Assembly (NCBI GenBank): GCA_965221165.1
Contig: CBDCRP010000003.1
Location: 672,001-736,000, forward strand
Direction: 5' to 3'
Length of the DNA: 64,000 nt
Origin: a bacterium
Lineage (GTDB): Bacteria > UBA8248
Part shown: piece by piece, positions 6,951 through 54,025 of the stretch
Layout of the letters: the number at the start of each line of letters is the position of its first letter
Position numbering within the stretch: the stretch's first letter is position 1
The notes under the pieces: generated by a model
Database searches by the model: none
Told to the model about the DNA's origin: nothing
The model's input: the letters and a program-made list of their open reading frames with translations, nothing else
Translations under genes and position numbers: made by a program

Positions 6951-7289
6951 ATGATGAATATCGGGGAAGAAAAATCGGATTCTGTGATCGTCCTTACGAT
7001 TGAAGGGCGTGCCGACGGCCTCACCGCACCGGAACTGGAAAACCGAATTTCGGAAATCGTCGATCGTGGTGATACCAATGTCCTGCTTGATTGCGACAAG
7101 ATGACATACGTCAGCAGCGCCGGGCTGCGCATATTTCTCACCGGCGCCAGAAAATGCCAGCAAAACGGCGGCAAATTGATGATCTGCGCGCTACAGCCCG
7201 ATTGCAAGTCAGTGATAGAAACCAGCGGTTTCCATACCGTAATCGATTGCCACGACACCCGTGAGGCAGCACTCGCGGCGGTTTCATAA
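6951..7289 (+). CDS. STAS domain anti-sigma factor antagonist
   Basis: YVSSAGLR phosphorylation-site motif, 112 aa. Confidence 0.9.
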   Translation: MMNIGEEKSDSVIVLTIEGRADGLTAPELENRISEIVDRGDTNVLLDCDKMTYVSSAGLRIFLTGARKCQQNGGKLMICALQPDCKSVIETSGFHTVIDCHDTREAALAAVS

Positions 7290-7300
7290 AGGAGCACTCC

Positions 7301-7954: not shown

Positions 7955-8086
7955 TAATCGGGGATTTTGAACTTTCACTGAAACGACGGGCGACACCATC
8001 TTCGATTCAAGGGCAGCCGAGGAGGAGTCTATCCTCTCTGGCTGAAACCAGAAGAGTCGGGCACAAACGTATCACATACGCCTTGC

Positions 8087-8545
8087 CTATATATTTCCGA
8101 TATTTCGCTTGCGCACCAAATGTACGCCTCGCATCGAGAGCACCAGTTCGTTTTCCTGGTTGAATGTCCTGAAATCCATGAGGACAATCCCACGCCCAGG
8201 CTCCGAGCGGGAGGCTCTCGTCTCGAGGACTTCCGCCTCGACACGCAAGGTGTCTCCAGGGCGAACGGGCTTTATCCAGCGGATGGAATCCATGCCGGGC
8301 GAACCCATTCCCGTGGTTCCGATAACGCCCGTATCGATAAACAGACGAAACGACGTGCCTATCGTATGAAACCCACTCGCAATAATTCCGCCGTATGGAG
8401 ACTCGGCCGCCGCTTCCTCATCGATATGGAATGGCTGCGGGTCATATAACTTGGCAAACTCTATGATTTCTTCTGTCGAGAGTGATTTTTCTTTCGTATG
8501 AAACTTCTCGCCGACCCTGAAATCCTCAAAATATTTTTCTCTCAT
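8087..8545 (-). CDS. MaoC family dehydratase
   Basis: YFEDF, YDPQPFHID, IASGFHT, PVRPGDTL. Confidence 0.9.
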   Translation of the reverse strand: MREKYFEDFRVGEKFHTKEKSLSTEEIIEFAKLYDPQPFHIDEEAAAESPYGGIIASGFHTIGTSFRLFIDTGVIGTTGMGSPGMDSIRWIKPVRPGDTLRVEAEVLETRASRSEPGRGIVLMDFRTFNQENELVLSMRGVHLVRKRNIGNI

Positions 8546-8569
8546 CGGAATTAACCATGCAATCTCATG

Positions 8570-8968
8570 TTACGCCGAGGTTCCGGGATATTTCTTCTCT
8601 GCTTCCTCGGCCCCTTGCGCCATGTTGTAATCCTCATCGAGTTCCCCCGTTCCGGCAGGGAACTTGACGGTGAAAAAAGTGGCTTCACCATCTACGGCCC
8701 GGCTTCTGTGGTTCGTATACCTGGGAATATGAATCAAATCCCCACGCTCTACGATCTTATCTTCCTCGCCGAGTATATAGTGCAGCTTGCCATCCAGAAT
8801 AAGTGTGAACTGCTCTTCATTCGGGTGCATGTGCAGCGGAGGGCCCTCACCCTCCGGCTTCGTGACGATACCCACTTTCATGAATTCGCCCACAACGCTT
8901 TTGGCCCGGACTTTGGGATTCGTTTTGCTGTTGCTTTCCTTCATTCCCTCGATTTCATAAAAAGGCAT
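8570..8968 (-). CDS. cupin domain protein
   Basis: HMHPNEEQ and GDLIHIP..NH motifs. Confidence 0.85.
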   Translation of the reverse strand: MPFYEIEGMKESNSKTNPKVRAKSVVGEFMKVGIVTKPEGEGPPLHMHPNEEQFTLILDGKLHYILGEEDKIVERGDLIHIPRYTNHRSRAVDGEATFFTVKFPAGTGELDEDYNMAQGAEEAEKKYPGTSA

Positions 8969-8996
8969 TCATTTTCCTCTCTATCATTTGAGCTAT

Positions 8997-10118
8997 CTAT
9001 AATTCCTCATACTCGTTGATGGCCATGGGAAGTTGAACAGGCGCTTTTCGGTTTGCGGAAACATCCATCGCCATGGTGAGCAGCAGATTTCTGTGTCCGT
9101 CTTGCACGGTGGCATGTGGTGTTTCCAAACCTGTATACACACGCCCGAACCAAGCGTTGGTTTCTTCGCGCATCGGACCCCAGAGCTGATCGAATGCGAT
9201 GTCTCCAGGTGGATAACTCGTCAGAAAATCTACGTTTCGCTTCACATCGGGCGTATAACCCGCCGGTTGCGCATTTTCACTGGCGAGCACCAAATCCCTA
9301 TGCGTATCGTCGATGGTGAGAACACCCTCGGTGCCTACGATGCCGATTTCCAGGCTATAGACGGAGCCGGGCCAAACCGTCGGCAGCGCCCATGAGATAT
9401 TCATGCTCCATATCGTCCCATCATCAAAGGTAAAGATGCCCAAAGTCGCGTCCTTGGTGCCATAAGAAGCGCCGAGCACCTTATCCATCGAACGCGCATA
9501 GACTTCGACAGGCGTTTTCCCGTCCATCAGCCACATACAGATATCGAGACTGTGCGTCCCCGAGACGACCATAGGCGTGAGGATGCCCCGGTATTCCGTT
9601 TTCGTTACCGTGGCGATGGGCACCAGGCGGTTCATGAACGCTCTCGTGACCACCGTGGTGACGTCTCCCAATTGACCGGTGCGAATCTTTTCCTTGGCGA
9701 CCAAAAACCGCCTTCTGAAACGCTGGGTATAGCCGACAACCGCATCCAGGCCTGCGTCTTCGACGGCTTTGAGAACCCGGGCGGAATCAGCCGCATTCGT
9801 GGCCAGGGGTTTCTCGATGAACAAGGCATGGCCTCCATCCACCGAAGCCAATATAGGACCTACGTGCTCGTTTTCCTCCGTGGCGATGATGGAAGCCGTC
9901 ACCTCCGGTCGGTCCAAAAGCTCCTTATAGTCCGTAGTGAAAAAATCGGCATTCGTTTCCTCGGCGAGTTTTCTCCCCACTTTCTCGTTGATGTCACAAA
10001 GGCCCAGCCACTCGACGCCCGGATAATCGCGGGCGAATTCAGCACGGACTCTACCGATCGTCCCGCAGCCGACTATGGCCAAACCGATGGGTTCTCTCTT
10101 TCCATTTTCACTACTCAT
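8997..10118 (-). CDS. Gfo/Idh/MocA family oxidoreductase
   Basis: GCGTIG, IEKPLA, GYTQRF, HSLD. Confidence 0.9.
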   Translation of the reverse strand: MSSENGKREPIGLAIVGCGTIGRVRAEFARDYPGVEWLGLCDINEKVGRKLAEETNADFFTTDYKELLDRPEVTASIIATEENEHVGPILASVDGGHALFIEKPLATNAADSARVLKAVEDAGLDAVVGYTQRFRRRFLVAKEKIRTGQLGDVTTVVTRAFMNRLVPIATVTKTEYRGILTPMVVSGTHSLDICMWLMDGKTPVEVYARSMDKVLGASYGTKDATLGIFTFDDGTIWSMNISWALPTVWPGSVYSLEIGIVGTEGVLTIDDTHRDLVLASENAQPAGYTPDVKRNVDFLTSYPPGDIAFDQLWGPMREETNAWFGRVYTGLETPHATVQDGHRNLLLTMAMDVSANRKAPVQLPMAINEYEEL

Positions 10119-10229
10119 TCCCTACTCCCTGGTATGTGCGAGTAAACTTCCATGAAACACGCCCTGAGACGACCTCTCCACTCAACGAGAAATCATGCGA
10201 GAGCGCGCAAAATTCCAACGCCTTAGAAA

Positions 10230-10592
10230 TTAGTCTTTGAGTTCGACGCGAATCGCTACAAGAGGTTTATCTCCATGATTTTCTACGGCGTGCAAACCCT
10301 CTCTACCCAGCCAGAAAGGGATGCCTTCTTTGCGATCTTCGCTGATGGCGCAAGCCTCTCCCTTATCATTGTAATAGCTGATTTTCGGAAAATTCACGAT
10401 CGTAAAGACACTCTCCCATTTATGCGTATGCTCGTTTTCCAGCTCTCCGGGTTGAATCGTCACACGCAAGACGCGGACCCGCTCGTTCTCGAAAATAATT
10501 TCGTGATTATCGGGAGCCGCGAATACGGCATCCAGTTCCTCGGGCGTTCCGGGAATATACTCTGGCCGCTTCGGCGCAACATTTTGGCTCAA
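10230..10592 (-). CDS. cupin-like protein
   Basis: FENERVRVL..PGE..HTH, HAVEN, IRVELK; TTG start after GGAGG. Confidence 0.75.
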   Translation of the reverse strand: MSQNVAPKRPEYIPGTPEELDAVFAAPDNHEIIFENERVRVLRVTIQPGELENEHTHKWESVFTIVNFPKISYYNDKGEACAISEDRKEGIPFWLGREGLHAVENHGDKPLVAIRVELKD

Positions 10593-10625
10593 TTTTATCC
10601 CTCCATGAAAATACAGGCACACCGG

Positions 10626-11561
10626 CTATGTGAATAATGATTTCGGCAGCATGGCATGAACTCCTTTCACTCCATTCACGATTTGCGTGACCCGCAAGTC
10701 TACGGCGAGGCTGCAAAGCGTATAGGCATCATCCTTGCTCATGCCTCGCAACTCTCCGAGGAATTTTATCGTCTCCCGGAGCGCCATTTTGGCCGCGTTA
10801 TCGAGTATGGGATCAAACCCCATCAGGATATAATGCGTATCGGTTTCCGCACGGGGATTTCCCAAGTGCAAATCCTTTCGGACGATAATTTCCATCGTAC
10901 CCGAAAGACCCGTTTCAATGGCCGTCAAGCAAGCCTCCCCGTCTCCCTGGCAACCATGCCCATCGCCCACGGAAAACAGCGCGCCCTCGTTGAAAATCGG
11001 GAAATAGGCGATAGAACCCGAGATGAGCTCTTTATTGTCTAAATTTCCGCCCCAGGCGCTTGGGGGATAACTGCCCACACGACCCACGGAGGGCGGGGGC
11101 GCTACGCCAAAATTACCGAAATACGGCCGCAGAGGCACCTTGACGCCCGCACCCCAGTCTCCCGTTTGCGCATCTAAATCGAGGTCCACTATGACGGCGC
11201 GCGTATACGGAAAATCTTCCGGCAATCCCCCCATCATCGGCCTGATGGCGTTATATCCCCAGTCATAGCGCGTCTTGACTTCATGGATACGAACTTCCAG
11301 CACATCCCCAGGCTGAGCGCCTTCTACGGCGACGGGACCCGTCATGATATGGGGGCCAAGCTCTTGGGGGACTTGCGAAACAATATCCCGCAAATTCTGC
11401 GATGCCCGTTCGCCGAGTTCGGCCAGATATTCTTCTCTGCCCGATTCCGTATGAACCTCCAGCGTATCGCCCGAGCGAATCCACATCACAGGTTCGAGGG
11501 AGGCGTCATAATGACCCCAATGAACGGTATCCGGGTTCGCAATCAATTCATGAGTCGCCAT
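10626..11561 (-). CDS. acetamidase/formamidase family protein (paralog 3)
   Basis: HIMTGPVAVEGA, GGNLDNKEL, GDGHGCQGDGE. Confidence 0.9.
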   Translation of the reverse strand: MATHELIANPDTVHWGHYDASLEPVMWIRSGDTLEVHTESGREEYLAELGERASQNLRDIVSQVPQELGPHIMTGPVAVEGAQPGDVLEVRIHEVKTRYDWGYNAIRPMMGGLPEDFPYTRAVIVDLDLDAQTGDWGAGVKVPLRPYFGNFGVAPPPSVGRVGSYPPSAWGGNLDNKELISGSIAYFPIFNEGALFSVGDGHGCQGDGEACLTAIETGLSGTMEIIVRKDLHLGNPRAETDTHYILMGFDPILDNAAKMALRETIKFLGELRGMSKDDAYTLCSLAVDLRVTQIVNGVKGVHAMLPKSLFT

Positions 11562-12508
11562 CAAAATGCTCCTTCATCAAGGATATCCTTCGGCAGCATC
11601 GCGTGAACGCCTTTGACACCATTCACAATCTGCGTGATGCGCAGATCCACGGCCAAGCTGCACAACGTATAGGCATCATCTTTGCTCATGCCACACAATT
11701 TCCCCAAAAACTTGATTGTCTCCCTGAGAGCCATTTTGGCTGCGTTATCAAGAATAGGGTCGAATCCCATGAGGATATGATGCGTGGCCGTCTCTGCGCG
11801 GGGCATCTCCAAGTTCAAATCTTTTCGGACAATGAGTTCGACTCTTGCGGACATACCGCATTCCAAGGCCGACAGACAGCTCTCTCCATCCCCTTGGCAG
11901 CCGTGTCCATCGCCTATGGCGAACAAAGCGCCATCCTGGAATACGGGAAGATAGGCGCGAGAACCCGCGATGAGTTCCTTGTTGTCCATATTTCCTCCCC
12001 AGATTCCCGGAGGAGTGGATGGAACACGACCAAAATCATCAGGTGGAGCCACACCAAAATTACCGAAATAGGGCCTTAGCTGCACCTTCACGCCTGCTCC
12101 CCAGTCACCCGTATTCGCCTCTTTGTCAATTTCCACAATCACCGTTCTTGAATATGGGAAATCCTCGGGCAAACCACCCGCCAGGGGCCGAATCACGTTA
12201 AAGCCCCAGTCATAGCGCGGCCAAACATCCAGAAACCTCACTTCCAGGACATCGCCCGCCACGGCTTCTTCCACAGCAATGGGTCCCGTGAGGATGTGGC
12301 CGCCTAAGTCTCTTTTTCCACTCTCAGCGATATGACGCAGGTTTTCAGACGCTCTTTCTCGAATTGGAGATTCAAGGGTCCGGATCCCCGGTTCCGTATG
12401 AACTTCGAGCACATCGCCCGAAGCCACGGTGAGAACCGGAGAAAGATCGGAATCATAATAACCCCACTGAATGTTGTCGGGGTTTTGCGTAATCACGTGC
12501 TCGGGCAA
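11561..12508 (-). CDS. acetamidase/formamidase family protein (paralog 2)
   Basis: HILTGPI, GGNMDNKEL, GDGHGCQGDGE. Confidence 0.9.
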   Translation of the reverse strand: MPEHVITQNPDNIQWGYYDSDLSPVLTVASGDVLEVHTEPGIRTLESPIRERASENLRHIAESGKRDLGGHILTGPIAVEEAVAGDVLEVRFLDVWPRYDWGFNVIRPLAGGLPEDFPYSRTVIVEIDKEANTGDWGAGVKVQLRPYFGNFGVAPPDDFGRVPSTPPGIWGGNMDNKELIAGSRAYLPVFQDGALFAIGDGHGCQGDGESCLSALECGMSARVELIVRKDLNLEMPRAETATHHILMGFDPILDNAAKMALRETIKFLGKLCGMSKDDAYTLCSLAVDLRITQIVNGVKGVHAMLPKDILDEGAF

Positions 12509-12533
12509 CGATGGCCCCTTCTAAAAATGAAAC

Positions 12534-13469
12534 TCATTCAAATAAAGATTTGGGCAGCATGGCGTGAACGCCCTTGGTGCCGTTCACAATTTGAGTGACG
12601 CGCAGATCGACCGCCAAGCTGCACAATCTGTAGGCATCATCGGGGCTCATGCCGCGAAGCTCACCCAGGAATTGAATCGTCTCCCGTAAAGCCATCTTCG
12701 CCGCATTATCCAGAATCGGGTCAAAACCCATCAAAATGTAGTGAGATTCCGTTTCCGCGCGCGGGATTCTGATGTTCATGTCCTTGCGAACGTTCATCTC
12801 GAAAGTACCGATGAGGCCCATCTCTATCCCGTTGATATTCGCCTCACCGTCCCCCTGGCAGCCATGCCCGTCTCCCGCCGAGAATAATGCGCCTTCGTTG
12901 AAAATCGGCAAATAAATCGTCGAACCGGCCGTAAATTCCTTACAATCCGTGTTTCCTCCCCACTCCCCGGGCGGAAACGTGGGCACACGCCCAAGCGCTG
13001 ATGACGGCGCTACTCCGAAATTCCCGAAAAAAGGCCCGAGCGGCACCTTGACCCCTGCTCCCCAGTCCCCCGTGCCGCTTTCCTCGTCAACCTCGACAAC
13101 CACCATTCTCGTATAAGGGAAATCCTCCGGCAGACCGCCCACCAAGGGTCTGAATCCGTTATAGCCCCAATCATAGCGGGGTTTGACCTCATGAATCTTG
13201 ATTTCCAGCACGTCGCCGGGTTCGGCGCCCTCGATGGCCACGGGACCCGTCATAATATGCGCCCCAGGGCTCGGGGACATGGTCTCCAGAATTTTTCTGA
13301 GATTTCCAGAAAGTCTCTCTGGATGCTTTTCCAAAAAATCTTTCCGCCCTGATTCGGTTTTCACGACGAGCGTATCGCCGGAAGCTATCGTCAGGACGGG
13401 AGCAAGGGCGGCATCATAAAAACCCCAATGGCAGGTATCGACAGTGGTATCCAGTTCGTGCGTGGCCAC
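12534..13469 (-). CDS. acetamidase/formamidase family protein (paralog 1)
   Basis: HIMTGPV, GGNTDCKEF, GDGHGCQGDGE; AGGAGG SD. Confidence 0.9.
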   Translation of the reverse strand: MATHELDTTVDTCHWGFYDAALAPVLTIASGDTLVVKTESGRKDFLEKHPERLSGNLRKILETMSPSPGAHIMTGPVAIEGAEPGDVLEIKIHEVKPRYDWGYNGFRPLVGGLPEDFPYTRMVVVEVDEESGTGDWGAGVKVPLGPFFGNFGVAPSSALGRVPTFPPGEWGGNTDCKEFTAGSTIYLPIFNEGALFSAGDGHGCQGDGEANINGIEMGLIGTFEMNVRKDMNIRIPRAETESHYILMGFDPILDNAAKMALRETIQFLGELRGMSPDDAYRLCSLAVDLRVTQIVNGTKGVHAMLPKSLFE

Positions 13470-22547: not shown

Positions 22548-24707
22548 TTATGATTCCAGAAAACAGCGGAGCGCTTCTTGTAGTTTTTCCCTGGACTTCA
22601 ATGAAGGCCGATAATTCATGTGCCGAAAATGATTCTCATCCATTTCACTTAGAAGCCTCCTGTAAATTCGGCCCATGATTCTGGCAGGAAGAAGGTTCTC
22701 TTTTTTCTCATGACGCAACGCCTCATTCGCCCGCTCGTAATATCCACGCGCCCGTTGCGCCAGAAGCCGAAGAAGACTCAAAACCTGAGAAGTATCTTTT
22801 TTGTCTCTCAGATCGGAGGCTGTTACACCATATTTTTCCATTTCGCTTTGCGGAATATAGAAACGGCCCTGTTCCGCATCCTCCCAAACATCTCTTAAAA
22901 TATTCGTCATCTGAAGCGCTCTTCCCAAACAAACGGCATAGTCTTTCGCAAATTCCGATTTCACGCCGAAGATGCCCAGGCACGCCAGCCCGACCGCAGA
23001 AGCCACCTTGTCGCAATAGTTTTCAAGCTCTGAGAAATCTTCGAATCGACTCTCCTCCAAATCCATCGCCACGCCGTCACAAATCGTCCGGAAATGCTCT
23101 GGCGGCAAGTCATATTTTCCCGCCGCCCACGCGAGTTCCCCAATTATCGGATGGGATGGACTCTCCTCGCACAAATGAGCCAGCGCCTCTTTCCATTCGC
23201 GCAACGAGTTTTTTTTGCCGGGTATCTCGCCCGGCTCATCGGCGATATCGTCGGCCATGCGGCAATACGCATAAACCGCTGTAATAGCGCGCCTTTTCTC
23301 CGCAGGCAGGCTGAAAAAAGACAGATAAAAATTCGACTTGCTCGCGCGAATAAACCAGCGGCAATATGCGCGGTTCAACTCTTCTTCCGCACGCCGATCC
23401 ACGCTGGATTCGAGTCGATAGACCGGACGAAACGCAGCGAGCAACGACCTGGCTTTATCCCAAGCATTCAAAATCGGAGAGCCTGAGCAAACGTTCCACT
23501 TCTCGTGGGAAATCGAGTCCAGTGCTGCAACGCCACCTCTCCAAATCGCACGAAGTTCACGACCCAATGCGCCGCGGGTCCGGTACAGGAGCGGCAAACC
23601 TCGTCTGAAGAGACGCTTCGTCCTTTTTATCTGAAAAACAAGAAACGCGCGCAGTTGAGGCGTCGCAACGTCCGCGATCAAATCAGCCTCGGATAAGGCG
23701 AATCTTTTCATTTCATCCTGAGGCATGTAGACGATGCCTCGTTCGGCATCTTCTTTTACATCTTGTAAATGATTCGCAATCTGCAAGGCCGTGCATATAG
23801 CATCCGAAGAACGGAGGGCTTCCTCATCACGTATCCCGTGCAACATGAGAACTATCCGCCCAACCGGGTTCGCCGATCGGCGGCAATAATCGAGCAAAGT
23901 TTCGTAGTCTGGATACCGGACAACCGTGACGTCTTGCCGGAATGCCGAGAGTAGATCCTGAAAAGGCTGCAAGGGCAAATCAAATTGCTGAATCGTGTGA
24001 GACAGCGCCATGAAAACGTCCGTTTCCGCGACTCCCTTCCGGGCCAACACGAGCTTTTCTTCCCATTCATCGAGGCGGGCGAGGCGCTCATGGGCGGGAC
24101 TGGTCGTATCCGCGATGTCATCAGCGCCTCTGGCGAACGCGTATACCGCGGCGACATGCGGCCTTATCTTCGCCGGCAGCAATTTCGAGGCGACGGGGAA
24201 ATTCTCGTAGTGGCCCGCTACGATTTTCATGCACACATCATAAGCGGCGCTTACATCATGCTCAGAAATGTTTTTTGTCTCTTTACCCAAATCTCGTATT
24301 TCCTCGCCCTTTATGAGAGATTCTATCAATCGCGCATCCGCAGGCAAGAAATCAAAATCCCCCAAAGAGGAAGGATGCACCCATTCATGCCTGCTCACCC
24401 CTAAATTCTTCGCCACCCCGCTTTCCCATTTACAACCATAAAAACGAAGGTGAACACTTCTATCGGGATAACGATGCCGGGTCTCCCAATGAAGACGACC
24501 AACGCGCACTTCGATCCCAAGTTCCTCGCAAATTTCCCGGTGTAAGGCATCCTGGGGATTTTCGCCACACTCTATTTTACCGCCCGGAAATTCCCAGAGA
24601 CCCGGCATGTGTCCGCCCGCCGGACGCCGGCAGATGAGAATACGCCCCTCATTCCAAATAATTCCGGCGACGACGCTTAGCTCTAGAGCAGGAGCTTCAT
24701 CTTTCAT
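22548..24707 (-). CDS. NUDIX (MutT/NudG-like) - HpnC - HpnD fusion
   Basis: WEFPGGK..REICEELG Nudix box; HYENFPVAS and ADDIAD (HpnC); SNFYLSF, ADDIADE, TNILRDV (HpnD); one 719-aa ORF. Confidence 0.85.
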   Translation of the reverse strand: MKDEAPALELSVVAGIIWNEGRILICRRPAGGHMPGLWEFPGGKIECGENPQDALHREICEELGIEVRVGRLHWETRHRYPDRSVHLRFYGCKWESGVAKNLGVSRHEWVHPSSLGDFDFLPADARLIESLIKGEEIRDLGKETKNISEHDVSAAYDVCMKIVAGHYENFPVASKLLPAKIRPHVAAVYAFARGADDIADTTSPAHERLARLDEWEEKLVLARKGVAETDVFMALSHTIQQFDLPLQPFQDLLSAFRQDVTVVRYPDYETLLDYCRRSANPVGRIVLMLHGIRDEEALRSSDAICTALQIANHLQDVKEDAERGIVYMPQDEMKRFALSEADLIADVATPQLRAFLVFQIKRTKRLFRRGLPLLYRTRGALGRELRAIWRGGVAALDSISHEKWNVCSGSPILNAWDKARSLLAAFRPVYRLESSVDRRAEEELNRAYCRWFIRASKSNFYLSFFSLPAEKRRAITAVYAYCRMADDIADEPGEIPGKKNSLREWKEALAHLCEESPSHPIIGELAWAAGKYDLPPEHFRTICDGVAMDLEESRFEDFSELENYCDKVASAVGLACLGIFGVKSEFAKDYAVCLGRALQMTNILRDVWEDAEQGRFYIPQSEMEKYGVTASDLRDKKDTSQVLSLLRLLAQRARGYYERANEALRHEKKENLLPARIMGRIYRRLLSEMDENHFRHMNYRPSLKSREKLQEALRCFLES

Positions 24708-27259: not shown

Positions 27260-27892
27260 ATGGGTGAGTTGAAAGAACCGATTGTTGTGGTGAAATACTC
27301 GGATTACACCTGACCATTTTGCTATGTCGCCACCGTTGGTGGCACGCCTGTGATTGAAGAAGACCCCGACGTGGTCGTCGAGTGGGTCAGCTGGGAGGGA
27401 AGACCCCCGGGGCGGGAGTTCGCCGGCTACTCTCCGGAGCAGAAAAAAGAAAGTTACGAGACGAACCACAAACCTCTCGCCGATAAGTATGGCGTACCCA
27501 TCAGGGTCGCGGGAGACGACTACCGCACCACCAACCTCCACATGGCCACCTATTACGCCCGGGACAAGGGGAAATTCAAGGAATTTCGGAATCGCTGCTA
27601 CAAGGCCCGCTGGGTGGAGAACCTGAGCCTGGAGGATTTGGACGTCATCGCCAAACTCGGCGAGGATGTCGGCCTCGACGGAGAGGAAATCAAAGCCGTC
27701 ATCGCCGAGAAACGCTACATCGGCGCGCTGCACAGCCAGCGCGCCCAGGGAAAAGGTCTGGGTATTTACGGAATCCCCACATTCGTGGTGGAGGGAAAAC
27801 TGTTTTGGGGTATAGACGTTATCGATGACGTCAAGGACGAGGTTGCCCGCGTGAAGCAGGAACGGCTCGAAAAGGAAAAAGAAGAGAGCTGA
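27260..27892 (+). CDS. DsbA/HCCA-isomerase-like protein, probable selenoprotein (UGA 27311-27313)
   Basis: GGAGG SD; MGELKEPIVVVKYSDYT-UGA-PFCYV (UxxC) in frame with ORF 27350..27892; GIYGIPTF, LFWG. Confidence 0.9.
27326..27345 (+). promoter_or_regulatory. candidate SECIS hairpin
   Basis: GU(C)GCCACC-GUU-GGUGGCAC, loop starts 22 nt after the UGA. Confidence 0.6.
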
Positions 27893-45070: not shown

Positions 45071-45754
45071 TCATCCCGTCGCTCTCGTAAGAATCTCGCG
45101 GTAACCCTGGTACACCGCCTCCCCGTAGGCGGGCGGGGCGTGCACTTCGGTGAGCTTTCCGCCTTCTATCGTCTTATCCGACGCGTATGGGTTGAAGACG
45201 GCCTCTCCATCCGGGAAGATGAGGGTGGGACTCGTCATCGGCAGACCCTCCTCGTCCCTTAAGCGCATGGCTTCCCTGTAATCGTCCATTACCCCTTCTT
45301 CAAATACGCCCGATTCCAGGTCCGCGCCCACCCTGGAGCCATCGAGACCCGCCTCTTCTGCGATCTCGCAAAGAACCGAAACCTCATCCACGCGTCTGCC
45401 CTCATAAAAAAAACCGCGCCTGAGCTTCAAATCATAGACGCGCGCCTTTACCGGGTCTTGCGCGTATGCGCTCGCGTAGGCCTGAAAGGCAAGCATCGTG
45501 GTTCTCAGGTATTCTTCGTGCGGCCAGCTTCGACACGGCGAGAGCGGCTCCTGAACCGCCACCAGGGGCCATTCCTGATCCACGATGTAGCGAGGCGCAG
45601 GCCGGTCGTTGATGACTTCCAGCGGGAACGCGCGCCACTTGAGATGCAGTTTGCCCTCGAAATCCGGCATCACCCTGTCCAGCCGCGCCGCGGCCAGGTA
45701 TGCCCAGGGTCAATGGTATTCATGAAAAATCTCGACAACCGCCATGTTCGTCAT
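45071..45754 (-). CDS. DsbA/FrnE-like protein, probable selenoprotein (UGA 45710-45712)
   Basis: GAGG SD; MTNMAVVEIFHEYH-UGA-PWAYLAAARL in frame with ORF 45071..45673; WRAFPLE, SPTL. Confidence 0.85.
45679..45697 (-). promoter_or_regulatory. candidate SECIS hairpin
   Basis: CUGGCCGC-GGC-GCGGCUGG, loop starts 21 nt after the UGA; lower helix CCCUG/CAGGG. Confidence 0.6.
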
Positions 45755-47194: not shown

Positions 47195-48013
47195 ACCGGA
47201 AGTCGGCTCCCTTCTCCTGCCCCGGCGTCTCGCGCGAAACTCCCGCAGCAGCCTCTCATGGTGTACGCTCGTGAAGAAACTCTCGACGAATGCGTTCACC
47301 GGGCGGTTGATGAGGTTCTCCGGCGTATCGACCTGAACAATTACGCCATCGCGCATCACGGCGATCCTGTCTGCGATTTGAAACGCATCCGTCAAATCAT
47401 GCGTCACCAGCAGGCTGATCGCCCCGATCTCATCATGCACCCTTCTCAACTCTTTGCGGACCTCGAGCCTGGCGACCGGATCGATATTCGCCAAAGGCTC
47501 ATCGAGAAGAAAAACGCGAGGCGGTATCGCGATGGCGCGGCCAATCGCGACTTTCTGCTGCTGGCCCGCGCTCAGGCTGTCCGGGCGGCGGCGGGACCAT
47601 TTTTTACTGATCCCCAGACGCCGCATCACATCCTGCGCTCGCTCGTTCAGGATGCCCGGCAGCCATCGGCGGATTTTGAGCGCGAAACTCAGGTTCGAGT
47701 ATTTTTTTTCATCGAAAACCTTCATGTGCGGCCACAGCGCGTAGCTCTGGAACACGAGTTGCACCCCGCGCCGGCCGGGCGGGATGCCGTTCAGTCGCAC
47801 GCCGTCCAAGTAGATATGGCCCGCATCCTCATCCTCCACGCCGGCTATCAAGCGCAACAGGGTCGATTTCCCGCAACCCGTGGGCCCGACGAGCACCATG
47901 AATTCCCCCTCTTCGAGCGCAAGGGAAAGATTATCGACCGCGCACACGTCGTCAAAATCTTTTTTGAGTCCCGTAATCGTCAGACGGCTCATGCTTCTCT
48001 CCGGCCCGTTCAT
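47186..48013 (-). CDS. ABC transporter ATP-binding protein (MalK/PotA-like)
   Basis: GPTGCGKST, LSAGQQQ, LLDEP, VTHD. Confidence 0.9.
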   Translation of the reverse strand: MNGPERSMSRLTITGLKKDFDDVCAVDNLSLALEEGEFMVLVGPTGCGKSTLLRLIAGVEDEDAGHIYLDGVRLNGIPPGRRGVQLVFQSYALWPHMKVFDEKKYSNLSFALKIRRWLPGILNERAQDVMRRLGISKKWSRRRPDSLSAGQQQKVAIGRAIAIPPRVFLLDEPLANIDPVARLEVRKELRRVHDEIGAISLLVTHDLTDAFQIADRIAVMRDGVIVQVDTPENLINRPVNAFVESFFTSVHHERLLREFRARRRGRRREPTSGSS

Positions 48014-48366
48014 TCCCCAGGCGCTAGTTCGTTCAGCGCCTCCATACCCGGCGTGAATATCTCCTCCAGAACGAGCGGCCCATCGCCCGCGTTGCTTGTG
48101 GCGTGCTCCTGGTTGGGCGGAAAAACCACGACGCCGCCCGGCCCGAGCACCACCTCCCGTCCGGCGCACCCGAACCTCGCGCGTCCTTCGAGAACAATCG
48201 TCATCTGCTCGTTGGGATGCGAATGGGGGTTGTATATGTCCACACCGGCGCGAATCGTCTGGCGAAGCACGGTAAGCTTCTCACCCGCCACCACGCGCTG
48301 AATCCTCTCTCCGGTATCGTGCGCTTCCATCTCCTCGAAATGGTAGTATTTCACTCTCTTCTCCAT
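48010..48366 (-). CDS. cupin domain protein
   Basis: HSHPNEQ, PPNQEH. Confidence 0.85.
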   Translation of the reverse strand: MEKRVKYYHFEEMEAHDTGERIQRVVAGEKLTVLRQTIRAGVDIYNPHSHPNEQMTIVLEGRARFGCAGREVVLGPGGVVVFPPNQEHATSNAGDGPLVLEEIFTPGMEALNELAPGE

Positions 48367-48500
48367 CTGAATGGATGAAACTTTACAGAAAAATTAAGTT
48401 CGGGCCGGAGAACCAACCGATTCATCGTATAGAAGTATTTGCATCCGCTCAATCGTTCTCCTAAAGTGTTTGCAGGCCGCTTAACCGTATGGAGACCGTC

Positions 48501-49022
48501 ATGAAGCGAACCCCTATTTACATCGCCGCCATCGTCTTTCTCGCCGTGTTCTGGACGTTTTATCAGGCAGGCGCATCGGGGCTCGGACCCGGCGCGCGCG
48601 CGCCCGAGCTCAAAGGCGGGCCCTGGCTGGGCGGCGAACCACTGAAACTCTCGGAATTACGCGGCAAGGTCGTGTTGCTCGACATGTGGACGTTCGCCTG
48701 AATCAATTGCGTGCGGGAGATCCCCACGCTGCGCTCGTGGCACGAGCGATATGAGGACAAGGGGCTGGTCGTCATCGGAAACCACGCGCCCGAGTTCAAC
48801 TTTGACAAGAAAAAAGCGAACGTGGAAGAAGCCATGGCCAAGCTCGGCATCAAATACCGCGTCGTGATGGATAATGAATTCACCAACTGGGACGCCTTTC
48901 AAAATCGCTTCTGGCCGACAAAATACCTGATCGACAAAAAAGGCGTCGTGCGCTTCAAGACGATTGGAGAGGGCAACCACGCGCGCACCGAGGCGATGAT
49001 CATGAAACTGCTCGCCGAATGA
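48501..49022 (+). CDS. exported TlpA/DipZ-like redoxin, probable selenoprotein (UGA 48699-48701)
   Basis: Joins ORFs 48489..48701 and 48711..49022 in one frame: LRGKVVLLDMWTFA-UGA-INCVREIP (UxxC); HAPEF, WPTKYLIDK; N-terminal signal/anchor. Confidence 0.92.
48709..48729 (+). promoter_or_regulatory. candidate SECIS hairpin
   Basis: GCGUG(C)GGG-AGAU-CCCCACGC with bulge, loop starts 17 nt after the UGA. Confidence 0.65.
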
Positions 49023-50008
49023 TGGAAACCGAAGAAACGGCGCAACCGGCGAGCACCCCCGCCTATCCCTACTCGTCTCTCTTAAGGATCACCCACTGGC
49101 TGAACGTCCCCCTCCTGCTCCTCATGATGGCGAGCGGGTTTCAGATATGGTGGGCATACCCCGCGTTCGGGCCGGACAGGCCCAACCCGGAGGCCATCTT
49201 CGAATCACTGCGGGGCACGGAGGTACAGGCCGACCCGCGCGCCATCAACCTGGGCGCCGACTACAGGGTTTTCGTCCAAGGCCTCACGAAAACCTTCGGC
49301 ATCGGGGAATGGCTCGCGGGCGCGCTGCGCTGGCACTTCGCTCTCATGTGGCCCTACACCATCAACGGGCTGATTTTCCTTCTTCTCCTGCTCTTGACGG
49401 AGGAAGGGAGGCACTACCGAATAAGGCAGGGAGATTTCTCCGGCGCGAAGGAGATGCTCTTACACCCCATCAAAACCTTTCACCATCCTCCCGGAGAGGG
49501 AAAATTCAACCCGATACAAAAACTCGCGTACAACACCGTCATACTGGCCGGGGTGATGTCCGTCCTCACGGGTCTCGCCATCCTCAAACCCGTCCAGTTC
49601 AAGTGGCTGACCCGGCTTTTCGGGGGCTATCAGCCGAGCAGATTCCTGCATTTTCTCGTCATGTTGTTTCTCGTCATTTTCATGATCGGCCATTTTCTCA
49701 TGGTGATATCCCACGGATGGCGGCGAGGGCTTGCACCCATGATCGTCGGAATCAAGGCGGAGCGCGACGCTTTTCAGGCCAGACAAAGGCAATTCGCCAA
49801 AAATCTCGGCCGCGTAGCCGCCGAGGGAGCGATTCTGCTGGTTTCCTTTTGGCTCGGAACCCTCATCGCGGATATGATGAACGCAGCCTTGGGCGGCGAG
49901 GCATCGGGCGCGTGGTTCGGCGCGCTCGGCTACCTCTTCGTGCGGGCGGGCCTCATGCGAGGGGGGCGCATCGAAGGCTTTCGCTGGAAGCGAAGCCTCG
50001 GGAGTTGA
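49019..50008 (+). CDS. cytochrome b/b6 domain membrane protein (YdhU/PhsC-like)
   Basis: RITHW, RWHF, FNPIQKLAY, RFLHF..GH heme His pattern; ATGA overlap. Confidence 0.88.
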   Translation: MMETEETAQPASTPAYPYSSLLRITHWLNVPLLLLMMASGFQIWWAYPAFGPDRPNPEAIFESLRGTEVQADPRAINLGADYRVFVQGLTKTFGIGEWLAGALRWHFALMWPYTINGLIFLLLLLLTEEGRHYRIRQGDFSGAKEMLLHPIKTFHHPPGEGKFNPIQKLAYNTVILAGVMSVLTGLAILKPVQFKWLTRLFGGYQPSRFLHFLVMLFLVIFMIGHFLMVISHGWRRGLAPMIVGIKAERDAFQARQRQFAKNLGRVAAEGAILLVSFWLGTLIADMMNAALGGEASGAWFGALGYLFVRAGLMRGGRIEGFRWKRSLGS

Positions 50009-50012
50009 GCGA

Positions 50013-50303
50013 ATGAGCACGGAAGAACAAATGGAATTCATACTGCCGACCAAACTGGCGAAGCGTAGGCTTTTCGTGGGCAGGCTGGTTTTGAGCGTCG
50101 TTTGCATCAACGCGCTTCTCTCTCTCCTCGCCGCATATCTGCTGAGCGGGCCGATGACCTGGCTAACGCGGTTTGAGTTCGGGTTCCTGGCCTGGGCCTC
50201 CATCTTATTCCCGACTTCTCTCGTTCTGGCGGTCCCGATAATGGCGCCCATCATCATTAAAATACTGAAATCCCCGCCTGCGTCCTCTGAAGAGAGAAGA
50301 TGA
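50013..50303 (+). CDS. small membrane protein
   Basis: Two hydrophobic segments; ATGA overlap with next gene. Confidence 0.65.
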   Translation: MSTEEQMEFILPTKLAKRRLFVGRLVLSVVCINALLSLLAAYLLSGPMTWLTRFEFGFLAWASILFPTSLVLAVPIMAPIIIKILKSPPASSEERR

Positions 50304-51112
50304 AAAAAGGCGAAAAGCGAAACCCAGGCGTTGGCGTGGACAAGTCTTCATCGTCCCGGCGCGGATTCATGAAAATGCTCCTTGGCCTCGCCTCCGTATT
50401 CATGGCCGGGTGTTCCCGCCTGAACGAAGAGCCCAAGGTGCAGGCCGTCCTCAGTTGGTTCGATCGCCTGAACCACAAGGTGGGCCTCATGACGGACAGC
50501 AACCACCGACTGGCGCGCACCTACCCCAGAAGCGCCGTTCAGCCCGAACAAATGCGGCCCAACGGCTCGGTGGTCTCGCCGAACTCCCAGCTCATCCAGA
50601 CGCCCCCCGAGAAGTGGCGCCTCGTCGTGGGGGAAGCCCATCTGCAAAAGGGCCGGATGATGAAAAGACACTGGGCCAGGGAATACACGCTTGCGCAGCT
50701 TCGCGAGATGCCCGTTCTCGAGCAGACGGTGGAGCACGTTTGCGTCGAGGGCTGGAGCGCCATCTGCCACTGGCAGGGAGTGCACCTCGCGCGCTTCATC
50801 GAGATGCACAAGCTCAGGCCCGAGAGCCGCTACGTGTTCTTCCTGTGCGACGACATGCTCGCCACCGCGAACGGGCACGAGCGCTACAGCGTGACGTTCG
50901 ACTTAAAGCAGGCGATGCACCCGCAGAACGTGCTGGCGTATGAATACAACGGCGAGACGCTGCCCGTGAACCACGGCGCTCCCATCCGCCTCGCCTCGCC
51001 CGCGAACGTGGGCTGGAAGAGCGCGAAATTCCTGCGCTACGTCTTTTTCACGAACGAGGACCTGGGCGGATTATGGGAGAAGCAGGGGTATCCGCGCTAT
51101 TATGGATTCTGA
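50300..51112 (+). CDS. sulfite-oxidase-family molybdopterin oxidoreductase, Tat-exported putative lipoprotein
   Basis: SRRGFMK twin-Arg, MAGC, HVCVEGWS Mo-ligand Cys, HGAPIRL, GWKSAK, WEKQGY. Confidence 0.88.
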   Translation: MKKGEKRNPGVGVDKSSSSRRGFMKMLLGLASVFMAGCSRLNEEPKVQAVLSWFDRLNHKVGLMTDSNHRLARTYPRSAVQPEQMRPNGSVVSPNSQLIQTPPEKWRLVVGEAHLQKGRMMKRHWAREYTLAQLREMPVLEQTVEHVCVEGWSAICHWQGVHLARFIEMHKLRPESRYVFFLCDDMLATANGHERYSVTFDLKQAMHPQNVLAYEYNGETLPVNHGAPIRLASPANVGWKSAKFLRYVFFTNEDLGGLWEKQGYPRYYGF

Positions 51113-51126
51113 TGCCCCCGAAAGTC

Positions 51127-51156
51127 TTGACAAGCCCCCGCCCGCCTACATATAAA
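51127..51156 (+). promoter_or_regulatory. sigma70-type promoter for tRNA-Asn
   Basis: TTGACA-18 nt-TATAAA. Confidence 0.55.
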
Positions 51157-51221
51157 CCCCTTACGCTTGGGAGCCGGCGCCGATTCCGGTAGAATGCCGA
51201 CTCAAGCGGAACGCCTCTCGA

Positions 51222-51296
51222 TCCGGCGTAGCTCAACGGCAGAGCAATCGGCTGTTAACCGATGGGTTGTAGGTTCGAATCCTACCGCCGGAGCCA
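51222..51296 (+). tRNA. tRNA-Asn (GTT)
   Basis: Cloverleaf; ATCGG-CTGTTAA-CCGAT; GGTTCGAATCC; encoded CCA. Confidence 0.95.
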
Positions 51297-51425
51297 GGAA
51301 ATACTATAAGTATTTGATTTTATTATCCTTAATAAATAGAAAGAAATGTCCGACCCACCATTCGGCCCACGAAGAATTACTGAATAATGGGCATCCGGCA
51401 CCAGTGAAAAGACGGAGAAGTGCAA

Positions 51426-52058
51426 ATGAGTGTGTTTCAGGCCAATTGTCCGTACTGCGGGACAAAAGCCGTTGCATTTAAGATCGTTACAAGCCGACGA
51501 GTGCAATCGAGGACAAATAATCGGTGGGACTCTCTCGCGACTTGTGGATTCTGCACCCGCGGGATACTCGCGACCTTCGAGACGCTACAAACCAATACCA
51601 TTCCAGAAAAACTACTGGATTCAAACAGGGATAACGAAGTGGAGCTAAAGACGATTTCTCCATCGCCGCCAAGTACGGGAGCCCCAGCAGACACGCCTCC
51701 CAGGGCTGCGAACTACTACAGGCAAGGAATGGAAAACCTACGAAACAACTACGACGCCCCCGGCAGCATGTTTAGGTCAGCACTAGAGGCCGGCCTAAAA
51801 GAGAAATTTCCGGACATCGACGGCTCGTTGTACGAACGGATCGAGAAAGCGGCGAACCAACAAGGTTTGACTCCTGACTTGGCTGATTGGGCACATCGGA
51901 TTCGGCTCGATGGCAACGACGCGGTACATGGCGACGAGGAATTCTTGAAGGAGGATGCGGAGCGTCTTCACGCCTTCACCGAACTGGTCTTTCTATATCT
52001 GTTCACCTTGCCCGGGATGTTGGAGAAGGCCCGGGACGAACAGACGGATGGCGGCTGA
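51426..52058 (+). CDS. DUF4145 domain protein with N-terminal Zn ribbon
   Basis: CPYC..CGFC; MFRSALE, LYERIE, IRLDGNDAVH (RxxGNxxxH). Confidence 0.8.
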   Translation: MSVFQANCPYCGTKAVAFKIVTSRRVQSRTNNRWDSLATCGFCTRGILATFETLQTNTIPEKLLDSNRDNEVELKTISPSPPSTGAPADTPPRAANYYRQGMENLRNNYDAPGSMFRSALEAGLKEKFPDIDGSLYERIEKAANQQGLTPDLADWAHRIRLDGNDAVHGDEEFLKEDAERLHAFTELVFLYLFTLPGMLEKARDEQTDGG

Positions 52059-52084
52059 TCTGACGCAGCGCCTTGCGATTCCCC

Positions 52085-52942
52085 TCAAACGCCGTTTTTC
52101 GCTTTTTCGAGGGTGGCGACGTTCATCGGGTGCGCATTGCGGCGGCGTTTGTCGAAGCGGACGCCCAAACGCGCGGCCTCGGCGAGACTCAAGCCCGCTT
52201 CTCGCAATTCGTCTCGGCTGAACCCCTTGCCGGGCCTCCATTCTCCGCGCGCATCTCTCACGAGAGCGGAAAATCCATTTTGCGTGGCAAGCATTTCCGA
52301 TGGTTCATTCGGCTGCTCCCGAGGCGGGTCGGCGGCAACCTCGATGAGCGTCGAGAGCCCATCTTCCCCGGACGGTTCGGGCTCATCCGGCAATTCATCC
52401 GAGACCGCTGCCGCCAAGGGTTCCTCATGCGCAGGGGCGAGGTCGCCGGTAATTTCCGGTTCGCTTTCCTGAGGGATATCCGGCCCGGGTGCAGACGCCT
52501 TCACAACGCTTTCAGCCACAGCCGGGACGGCATCCTCATGCTCTTGCGGCGGCTCAGCCTCATCAGGCAAATCACTTGATTCCGGCGCAGACAAAACCTC
52601 GAAGTCGGCCCCATATCCTCGAGGTGGCTCGGGATCGTGAGAAGGCTCAAGTTCATTCGGCGACTCGTCTGCTCCCGACGCCGCCAGCAATTCAAAATCG
52701 GGGCCATAGTCTTTTTCCTGCATATCCATCCCGCTCCTCGAATCGGAGCGCGTTTGTTCACCGGAAGCCAATAAATCGAAGTCAGCGCCATATCCGCTTT
52801 CCTCCGCCCCAAGTGCGGAATCCGGGGATTTTCGCTTGACGGCAAAAGGCGGCGGGATTTCATACCCCTCTTCCCCCGGCCCGGGGGGTGCGGAGCGCTT
52901 GGAGCCGGCGATGCGGTTTAAGAGTTTCTTTCTGATTTGCAT
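52085..52942 (-). CDS. acidic repeat protein with C-terminal ribosomal protein eL13 (L13e)-like domain
   Basis: RPGKGFSRDELREAGL...LGVRFDKRRRNAHPMNV matches the L13e RxGRGFSxxELxxAG..G..D.RR pattern; AGGGG SD. Confidence 0.7.
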   Translation of the reverse strand: MQIRKKLLNRIAGSKRSAPPGPGEEGYEIPPPFAVKRKSPDSALGAEESGYGADFDLLASGEQTRSDSRSGMDMQEKDYGPDFELLAASGADESPNELEPSHDPEPPRGYGADFEVLSAPESSDLPDEAEPPQEHEDAVPAVAESVVKASAPGPDIPQESEPEITGDLAPAHEEPLAAAVSDELPDEPEPSGEDGLSTLIEVAADPPREQPNEPSEMLATQNGFSALVRDARGEWRPGKGFSRDELREAGLSLAEAARLGVRFDKRRRNAHPMNVATLEKAKNGV

Positions 52943-53195
52943 GCCCCCTCTTTCAACTCAGAAATTCATTGCGTGGATAATCTCTCGTCGAGGTATTACA
53001 GGGGGGGCGGTAACAAAACTGGATAGGCTACGGGTTAAAACTAACGATTCCAGAGGCTCGCTGTCAAGGCGCTCGCTCCCGAGCGCGCGCATGCGCCGGG
53101 GATGATCATCGGCGCGGGACGTCCACGAGGACGGGCGAATGCGCCCTCCTCCGTCAGTCCGCTTTTATCCGCCCCCCCTTGGCGCCGGTTGTATT

Positions 53196-53513
53196 CTATC
53201 CATCCCCCTGATGGATGGTTCTCAGGTCTCGCTCGAGATCTTCAAGGTCGTATTGGGCCGGCGCTTTTCTCGCGCGGGCATAATCCGTCATCTCCCACAA
53301 GGACACCCCGGCATCGCGAGCGGCCCGCGCGAGCGTGAGCTTTCCATCCCCGTACAGCCGGACGTAGTGCTCCAGCTTCCATTGCCGGATCGCGCTCGAG
53401 AGCAGCCGGCGCACGGTGGTTGAACGATCGGACTGCTCCACATCCTCGATGAGTTCCAATTCGCGGACCAACTCCAGGGGGAGTCTGGCGCCCACCATCC
53501 GTTCTTTCTTCAT
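53196..53513 (-). CDS. UPF0175 family putative antitoxin (RHH + HTH)
   Basis: VGARLP, DRSTTVR, YGDGKLTLARAARDAGVS, EDLERDL; ATGA overlap. Confidence 0.75.
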   Translation of the reverse strand: MKKERMVGARLPLELVRELELIEDVEQSDRSTTVRRLLSSAIRQWKLEHYVRLYGDGKLTLARAARDAGVSLWEMTDYARARKAPAQYDLEDLERDLRTIHQGDG

Positions 53514-54025
53514 CTCTTCGCCTCCCGTGCGAGTCTCAATACTTCCACCACGACGGCCGGGGAGAGCCATAATATCCGAGTGATATCCCGAATCGTGGCC
53601 TCGAATTCTCCCAAGTCAAGGTATCCTCGCAAGTACGCTTCCAACAATGCGCCGACGGCGCCCAAGTGTTCTACCCCGACCGCCGCGGCCACGCTTCGGG
53701 CTTCCTTGTCATCAGCGATCAGTCGCAGGCCCCGCAGGTCCGCGAGCGCGATGGACTCGGCCTCCCCCCGGTCCAGCCGGGAGCGCCCCATCAGCCGTTG
53801 CATCAGGTCTTGCTCCTCGGCGGTCAAGCGCACCGTCCGCAGCCAGCCGTCTTCCATAGCGGTCTCAAGTTGTTCCACGCCCAGGGCGCGAACAACCCTG
53901 CCGGTATCGATTGTCTCCTCCTTCACGACAGCCCCTATCAGCACCTCGCCGTAGAGTTCGTTCAAGAGTCCCAGACGCCCGAGCTTGGCGAGGACAATCA
54001 ACGAAGAGGCGTCGGCTACGATCAT
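53510..54025 (-). CDS. DUF3368 / PIN domain putative toxin
   Basis: IVADASSLI, LDRGEAESIALA, ADDKEAR. Confidence 0.85.
   Translation of the reverse strand: MIVADASSLIVLAKLGRLGLLNELYGEVLIGAVVKEETIDTGRVVRALGVEQLETAMEDGWLRTVRLTAEEQDLMQRLMGRSRLDRGEAESIALADLRGLRLIADDKEARSVAAAVGVEHLGAVGALLEAYLRGYLDLGEFEATIRDITRILWLSPAVVVEVLRLAREAKR

Follow-up and report, generated by a model that had tools for sequence, protein, structure and literature searches.

What task could unite, in one bacterial operon, a redoxin gene interrupted by an in-frame stop codon and the gene for an exported molybdenum (Mo) enzyme? The question is raised by positions 48501-51112 (plus strand) of a 64-kb stretch of bacterial DNA, here called the window. 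Four genes at this locus encode, in order, a thioredoxin-fold redoxin, a membrane cytochrome b, a small membrane protein and the Mo enzyme. On the basis of the sequence and its relatives, the stop codon TGA 48699 encodes selenocysteine (Sec) with high probability. The explanation that we favor for the locus as a whole, giving it an even chance, is a co-expressed operon for the repair of oxidative damage in the cell envelope, with two parallel arms.

Four genes form one operon

The open reading frames (ORFs) 48489-48701 and 48711-49022 share a frame, and nothing but the TGA at 48699-48701 divides them. Read as one, the redoxin gene overlaps the cytochrome b start in an ATGA (49019-49022), and a second ATGA joins the small ORF to the Mo gene (50300-50303). 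A gap of 4 nucleotides (nt) separates the cytochrome b stop from the small ORF. The same four genes, all on one strand and with overlaps or gaps of at most 13 nt, were present in three of three loci compared, namely the window and two related loci (L001 and L002) from the genome scan described below. At the redoxin/cytochrome b junction, the ATGA overlap of the window recurs in L001; in L002, 7 nt containing a GAGG separate the two genes. The four genes are one tight operon, also in L001 and L002, and both the ORF coordinates and inspection of the junctions bear out an earlier note on this DNA, which had described a four-gene operon with two ATGA overlaps. A scan of 48000-51500 returned no promoter-like site ahead of the redoxin gene and three terminator-like sites, against 3.8 expected. 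ARAGORN placed a tRNA-Pro (GGG) on the minus strand at 50482-50558, inside the Mo gene; it has no Rfam tRNA match and is probably a false call.

Is read-through of the TGA the only way to reach the cytochrome b gene? The earlier note had held that it is. This part of its account has to be corrected, as gene callers open a 103-amino-acid ORF at GTG 48711, past the TGA. A product begun at this GTG would be without the active-site residue. Gating of the downstream genes by selenium (Se) through translational coupling is plausible, because the cytochrome b start is preceded by no visible Shine-Dalgarno motif, either in the window or in L001.

The interrupted redoxin gene is a probable selenoprotein gene

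Translation through the TGA yields a product reading LLDMWTFA-U-INCVRE around the codon, with Sec (U) in place of the first Cys of a CxxC motif (U-I-N-C). The likelier start is ATG 48501 (MKRTP...) rather than the upstream ATG 48489, since GGAG lies 7 nt upstream of the former and L001 has a TAG stop three codons before the equivalent ATG. The N-terminal hydrophobic helix that follows would serve as a signal peptide or an anchor. Pfam assigned the product to AhpC-TSA/Redoxin (E values 2e-13 and 1e-10), and its closest solved relative is the C-terminal domain of Mycobacterium tuberculosis DipZ (2hyx; E 1.3e-41), the C-I-N-C of which is aligned to U-I-N-C.

The TGA was kept in L001 (position 4398; 91% amino acid identity) and in L002 (position 4343; 73%), with both flanks conserved as protein. 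In the window, the G+C content at third codon positions is 0.77 on either side of it. All 22 full-length homologs aligned (42 to 55% identity) have Cys in the Sec column, and none departs from the second Cys of the motif. The database homologs include Cys forms of 45 to 59% identity, and Cys also stands at the Sec position in the relative found at locus L064. The ten nearest database clusters (67 to 97% identity) are all fragments of 97 to 104 amino acids that start past the TGA, which is what gene callers yield from a Sec gene. The suggestion that the first gene is a selenoprotein candidate is therefore upheld by the TGA in three loci, the Cys in 22 of 22 homologs and the DipZ alignment.

Over 111 nt around the TGA, mean column identity among the window, L001 and L002 is 93%. 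Two hairpins follow the codon; the apical stem-loop of the first was kept in all three loci, with the lower stem remodeled in L002, and the second is identical in all three. The hairpin energy z-scores of -1.2 to -2.1 are weak on energy alone, and three sequences are too few for covariation. Rfam searches gave no family of selenocysteine insertion sequence (SECIS) elements at the gathering threshold and none at E up to 10 around the TGA; the only two matches were at chance level.

Taken alone, the redoxin is of a known kind, because UxxC selenoprotein forms of PF00578, PF08534 and the TlpA-like cd02966 are already catalogued in Table 1 of PMC13188914. In the literature searched, no relevant paper links a selenoprotein to DipZ, and none of six redoxin terms occurs in one BSepDB supplement.

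Table 1. Features of the operon and of three further TGA-containing genes in the window
Feature	Position	Strand	Product length (amino acids)	Basis
Redoxin, DipZ-type thioredoxin fold, predicted periplasmic, one N-terminal hydrophobic helix	48501-49022	+		Pfam, PDB match, alignment, hydropathy
In-frame TGA, probable Sec; codon 67 (from ATG 48501) or 71 (from ATG 48489)	48699-48701	+		Conservation, alignment
SECIS-like hairpin GCGUG-C-GGG[AGAU]CCC-CACGC, 8 nt past the TGA	48709-48729	+		Folding
Second hairpin, identical in window, L001 and L002	48732-48748	+		Folding
Membrane cytochrome b, PF01292 (prokaryotic cytochrome b561; FdnI/HyaC type)	49019-50008	+	329	Pfam (E 9e-17), alignment, fold search, hydropathy
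Small membrane protein, two clear hydrophobic helices	50013-50303	+	96	Hydropathy, conservation
Tat-signal lipoprotein, single sulfite-oxidase-fold Mo domain (YedY/MsrP-like size class)	50300-51112	+	270	PF00174, Mo-binding oxidoreductase domain (E 2e-27)
DsbA-like gene, TGA 27311 in YT-U-PFC	27260-27892	+		DSBA profile start moves from 60 to 2 and score from 76 to 97 bits with read-through
DsbA-like gene, TGA 819 in WNCYV-U-PYAY (CxxU or UPYA)	190-849	-		Profile start moves from 24 to 2 and score from 49 to 65 bits
DsbA-like gene, TGA 45712 in HEYH-U-PWAY	45071-45754	-		Profile start moves from 84 to 1-2 and score from 23 to 47 bits

The Mo enzyme and cytochrome b resemble MsrPQ in layout and differ from it in kind

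What kind of enzyme closes the operon? All 26 aligned Mo enzymes share the twin arginines of the twin-arginine translocation (Tat) signal and the G-C lipobox (R20, R21, G37 and C38), and C148 and C183 are invariant in the alignment as well. The Tat model TIGR01409 matched a member of the same clade (P0022), and no match was reported for the window protein. C148 is aligned with the Cys of RCVEAWS in YedY (1xdq), which we take to be the Mo ligand. Eight residues past this position, C156 is found in 17 of 17 members of the window clade versus none of nine in the wider family, and an insertion is likewise peculiar to the clade.

The Mo enzyme lies outside all named subfamilies, because its scores fall under every cut-off: 70.9 bits with the MsrP equivalog model, against 207, and 31 to 41 bits with the NCBIfam models of SorA, SorT and SoxC, against 420 to 600. 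Six of its relatives scored 70.6 to 102.9 bits with the MsrP model. A structural model of the enzyme, with a predicted local distance difference test (pLDDT) score of 79.2, matched the folds of SorA (2blf; E 5e-12) and YedY (1xdq and 1xdy; E ~1e-11) about equally, followed by SoxCD (2xts; E 2e-9).

The membrane partner is equally distinct from that of MsrP. H26, H106, H211 and H225 of the cytochrome b are invariant in 28 of 28 aligned relatives, and these heme-type His residues are spread over the transmembrane helices as one, one and two. FdnI carries a pattern of four heme-ligand His residues. The cytochrome b model (pLDDT 74.6) has FdnI (1kqf_C; E 4.7e-3) and HyaC (4gd3_A) as its nearest folds, and a sequence search of PDB chains gave no match at E up to 0.01. 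MsrQ belongs to the STEAP/NOX-type fold class, and folds of this type matched the model at E above 1 only. The idea that the redoxin serves to mature the operon's own cytochrome was considered and rejected, since this cytochrome is of the b type, lacks a CxxCH motif and has a tail free of Cys.

Could the electrons flow the other way? The fold matches to SorA and SoxCD suggest that the Mo enzyme might oxidize sulfite, or sulfane or selenium species carried on the Sec/Cys of the redoxin, and pass electrons via the cytochrome b to quinone. SoxCD acts on sulfur bound to SoxY, and FdnI and HyaC, the nearest folds of the cytochrome b, hand electrons from periplasmic enzymes to quinone. We consider this explanation quite unlikely. 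It is opposed by the low SorA, SorT and SoxC scores and by length: the fold targets among sulfite and sulfane dehydrogenases have 365 to 389 residues (SorA 373, SoxC 389), and at its 270 the window protein is without their C-terminal second domain. The 61 window ORFs scanned included no sulfur-oxidation genes, and the genes that accompany the pair in other genomes, described in the following section, point to methionine sulfoxide repair instead.

Neighbors of the pair suggest methionine sulfoxide reduction

Which genes accompany the Mo enzyme elsewhere? In a scan that took one genome from each species, at least 586 stretches proved to encode relatives of it, and the best 80 of these were fetched; they are mostly proteobacterial and not a random sample. 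In 79 of the 80 loci (the exception is L061), the Mo gene is preceded on its own strand by a cytochrome b homolog, which directly adjoins it in all pair loci but L063. Judged from neighbor clusters and Pfam, the pair is accompanied by an extracytoplasmic function (ECF) sigma factor in 18 of 80 loci, by an NrsF anti-sigma factor (PF06532) in 12 and by MsrA (PF01625) in 5. A secreted Met-rich or MXKDX-repeat protein occurs in 19 of 80, directly flanking the pair in most of them (20 loci were flagged, and L024 was dropped by eye).

This set of neighbors matches the accessory set of the hypochlorite-induced MsrPQ response. In Azospira, the response is described as comprising SigF/NrsF, YedY1Z1 and the sacrificial Met-rich protein MrpX (PMC4436054); the Brucella counterpart comprises BcrS/AbcS and BcrXQP (PMC8315932), and Caulobacter SigF also controls a yedY homolog (PMC3511200). 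As far as the texts of these three reports describe them, the enzymes are canonical MsrPQ homologs.

By association, the pair would thus work like MsrPQ, yet it fails two defining features of that system: the membrane subunit is not homologous to MsrQ, and the Mo enzyme stays under the MsrP cut-off. The description "MsrPQ-like but distinct" in the earlier note fits this outcome, with the layout alike and both components different. Sulfite-oxidase-fold proteins of about 255 amino acids paired with a PF01292 cytochrome b are widespread in Proteobacteria and look like an unstudied MsrPQ analogue. On the strength of gene neighbors in the wider family, the Mo enzyme of the window would reduce methionine sulfoxide in proteins. 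In the literature searched, which excluded Haft and Tolstoy 2025, we found no description of the operon or of the Mo/cytochrome b family.

The redoxin accompanies the pair within one lineage

Is the redoxin a functional part of the operon? A relative of it was found by tblastn and profile search in 4 of the 80 loci, namely L001 and L002, both with the TGA, and L064 and L076. Outside the window clade, then, only 2 of the 78 further loci have a redoxin relative within 4.5 kb of the pair, and the one at L076 is distant, on the opposite strand and ~4 kb off. At L064 (Rubrivivax sp. RP6-9), the stretch 7111-8364, downstream of the cytochrome b, Mo and MXKDX genes, encodes a DipZ-like CcdA-redoxin fusion with an in-frame TAA; this is a pseudogene or a sequencing error.

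Within the lineage the association is consistent. Clusters of Mo enzymes and of redoxin fragments pair up on contigs of the same size (2917376, 2934324, 13159 and 45156), and a Mo enzyme 63% identical to that of the window (MEE9274137.1) is three accession numbers away from a redoxin fragment (MEE9274140.1). Co-conservation of the redoxin with the cytochrome b/Mo pair, which the earlier note had expected, is thus seen in the lineage (the window, L001, L002 and five further pairs) and is rare in the wider family.

Such a distribution would also fit a redoxin that is an unrelated passenger, that is, an ordinary periplasmic thiol-disulfide reductase acting, for example, in cytochrome c or copper-center maturation. 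Its top NCBIfam matches are ResA and TlpA, both far under the cut-offs. Adjacency of redoxin and pair says little by itself, because the synteny takes in upstream genes with no evident link to them: a hydrolase and an ATP-binding cassette (ABC) ATPase in L001 and L002, and in L001 also coenzyme A (CoA)-binding and DsbA-like genes. We regard a passenger as unlikely all the same. The same-strand overlap or gap of at most 7 nt was kept down to 73% protein identity, the accession numbers above imply the same gene order in a metagenome-assembled genome (MAG) with the 63% identical Mo enzyme, and the redoxin family is linked to methionine sulfoxide reductases (Msr) by gene fusion. This last point comes from a survey of redoxin homologs, the longer of which are mostly DipZ-like: 51 of the 120 longer homologs listed carried a CcdA/DsbD domain (PF02683) and two (P0380 and P0382) were fused to MsrB. 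On account of these fusions, the logic of the family appears to be that of a periplasmic reductase fed by CcdA and serving thiol-dependent clients, Msr among them.

If the redoxin belongs to the operon, does it belong to a complex with the other products? Two further membrane elements bear on this. The first is a C-terminal extension of the cytochrome b, about 85 amino acids long, which is present in 3 of 28 sequences (window, L001 and L002) and holds one or two more hydrophobic helices by hydropathy and no Cys. The second is the small membrane protein, which has no Pfam or NCBIfam match and is conserved in L001 (75% identity) and L002 (50%). It shows 34 invariant columns among four sequences (the window, L001, L002 and a fourth genome), and only 4 related clusters were found among 1.84 billion representatives; a protein atlas search gave a best score of 0.87, under the lead level of 0.9. 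On a contig of 2.93 Mb, one annotated ORF of 362 amino acids (P0008) spans both the small protein and the Mo enzyme; either the two are truly fused, or the start was placed too far upstream in a stretch free of stops. Complex prediction for the cytochrome b, small protein and Mo enzyme gave a score of 0.00 (mark 0.32) and weighs neither way.

Only in the window clade do the Sec-redoxin, the extended cytochrome b, the small protein (2 of 80 loci) and C156 occur together, as would be expected if all four products formed one membrane complex. The redoxin helix would then pack on the cytochrome b tail and the small protein, and electrons would move between quinol/heme b, Mo and a selenylsulfide, giving periplasmic reducing power independent of CcdA; alternatively, the redoxin would cycle Cys156. 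The ATGA junction of window and L001 and the 7-nt gap of L002 agree with such a complex, as does the absence of a nearby CcdA gene among the window ORFs scanned. These traits are confined to one lineage, however, and shared descent explains them equally well. No fusion of a redoxin to PF00174 or PF01292 was present among the 120 longer homologs listed, which is weak evidence. The tail of the cytochrome b is free of Cys and L002 lacks the one Cys of the small protein, so that the membrane shows no visible thiol relay; moreover, a typical thioredoxin-type couple is poorly reduced by quinol. A single complex is accordingly an improbable arrangement. Slightly less probable again is its full version, in which the Sec-redoxin/cytochrome b/small protein/Mo complex would couple the quinone pool to both sulfoxide and selenylsulfide/thiol chemistry, with Cys156 as the contact and with Se-dependent synthesis. 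Of the single Se-heme-Mo module proposed in the earlier note, running from quinone to thiol or sulfoxide chemistry, the Sec candidate, the operon and the pair stand; in the wider family a redoxin relative is near the pair in 2 of 78 loci only, and fusions to the Mo or cytochrome b domains were not found among the 120 longer homologs listed.

Two proposed arms of an envelope repair operon

The favored explanation of two parallel arms could work as follows. In the first arm, the lipid-anchored, Tat-exported Mo enzyme would draw electrons from the quinol pool via a two-heme cytochrome b and use them to reduce methionine sulfoxide, or else a related S- or Se-oxide, within proteins of the periplasm. 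The job of MsrPQ would thus be done with another membrane subunit, to which the tail of the cytochrome b and the small protein would probably add extra membrane parts. In the second arm, the redoxin would act as a periplasmic thiol-disulfide reductase of the type of the DipZ C-terminal domain, with Sec at the attacking position raising its reactivity. It would most likely be recharged by a CcdA/DsbD-type protein encoded elsewhere, and its clients would be oxidized Cys residues or thiol-dependent Msr enzymes. The arms would be tied by co-expression and not by direct electron exchange. The gene anatomy, the evidence for Sec, the assignments to families and folds and the pattern of conservation are established; the substrate, the direction of electron flow, the electron source of the redoxin and the independence of the arms are inferred.

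Several observations weigh against this picture. Genes for a Met-rich protein, NrsF and MsrA are missing from the vicinity of the window operon and from the ORFs listed for L001 and L002, and because these accessory genes are lacking there, function has to be carried over from relatives that are 33 to 38% identical. The traits peculiar to the clade (C156, the insertion, the cytochrome b tail and the small protein) could mean that the function has changed. FdnI/HyaC-type cytochromes also run in the oxidizing direction, and an ATGA overlap of the kind that joins redoxin and cytochrome b is often seen between subunits of one complex. Finally, no CcdA/DsbD gene (PF02683) is found among the 61 window ORFs scanned, and selA, selB, selC and selD are all absent from the window.

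Sec use in the lineage and other genes of the window

Is the redoxin gene the only one in the window with an in-frame TGA at a redox position? Three DsbA-like genes have a TGA exactly at the redox Cys position, each followed by a hairpin (Table 1). The product of the gene at 27260-27892 is a probable selenoprotein of the known DsbA-like form 1 (UxxC), and the TGA at 45712 was kept in L001 (769-1473, minus strand). From these genes, the organism appears to use Sec widely. Close relatives are named Nitrospinota or Nitrospinae in the databases, and L002 comes from a MAG labeled Tectomicrobia. In Table 2 of PMC13326102, three Nitrospinota-labeled UBA8248 genomes with 48 to 54 selenoprotein genes each are among the ten most selenoprotein-rich bacteria. 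The locus brings four probable selenoproteins to a lineage reported as rich in Sec.

Other parts of the window deserve mention in their own right. Within 110 nt after the Mo gene lies a tRNA-Asn, followed by a DUF4145 gene and a UPF0175/PIN-like pair (51222-54025), which is possibly an island at the tRNA-Asn. In L001, three ORFs resembling tripartite ATP-independent periplasmic (TRAP)-type transporters, an assignment made by eye, and an epimerase-like gene (7053-11870) stand between the Mo gene and a stretch matching the tRNA-Asn. On the minus strand at 10626-13469 are three tandem acetamidase/formamidase (FmdA_AmdA) paralogs of 311 to 315 amino acids each. A 719-amino-acid ORF (22548-24707, minus strand), beside an amine-oxidase-type flavoprotein, combines a NUDIX domain with two squalene/phytoene synthase stretches and is possibly a fused squalene synthesis gene.

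Comparison with known systems

How does the locus compare with systems already described? What is new is the operon itself and the Mo/cytochrome b family behind it. The redoxin shares with known UxxC selenoproteins of the redoxin, TlpA-like and Prx-like kinds the families PF00578 and PF08534, the UxxC motif and the interchange of Sec and Cys; no operon that also encodes a cytochrome b and a Mo enzyme is mentioned for them in the accessible parts of PMC13188914. The nearest relative by structure, DipZ (Rv2874; 2hyx and 5cyy), is likewise extracytoplasmic, its C-I-N-C matching U-I-N-C. DipZ, however, is fused to CcdA and uses Cys, whereas the window redoxin stands alone on a single helix and carries Sec, with no gene for CcdA in its vicinity. 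If the redoxin proves to be connected to the pair, the locus would represent a new way of powering envelope thiol chemistry, and if the single complex is true, periplasmic thiol redox power would be supplied by a route without CcdA/DsbD.

The cytochrome b shares its Pfam family, nearest folds and four-His pattern with FdnI of formate dehydrogenase-N and HyaC of hydrogenase-1. Its partner differs from theirs in being a sulfite-oxidase-fold Mo protein with no iron-sulfur subunit in between, and the cytochrome b itself has the extra C-terminal extension.

With MsrPQ (YedYZ of Escherichia coli), YedY1Z1-MrpX and BcrXQP, the locus shares the gene of a Tat-exported single-domain Mo enzyme beside that of a heme b membrane protein, and the wider pair family has the same accessory genes (ECF sigma/NrsF, Met-rich secreted protein and MsrA). 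The window departs from MsrPQ in having a partner of the PF01292 FdnI/HyaC type in place of MsrQ and a lipoprotein as its Mo enzyme. Its lineage adds the Sec-redoxin, the small protein and the cytochrome b tail; neither the regulators nor the Met-rich protein are present in it. Should the pair represent a second type of periplasmic methionine sulfoxide reductase, repair capacity would be under-annotated in many soil and water bacteria.

PilB of Neisseria and the MsrB-redoxin fusions P0380 and P0382 likewise tie a periplasmic thioredoxin-fold reductase to methionine sulfoxide reduction. In those proteins, the Msr is thiol dependent and fed by the redoxin, whereas the neighbor of the window redoxin is a Mo enzyme, thiol independent in the known cases. 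Periplasmic repair has two electron supplies, thiol electrons via DsbD/CcdA and quinol electrons that reach MsrP via MsrQ, and this locus sets a Sec version of the thiol-type reductase at the head of a quinol-type operon.

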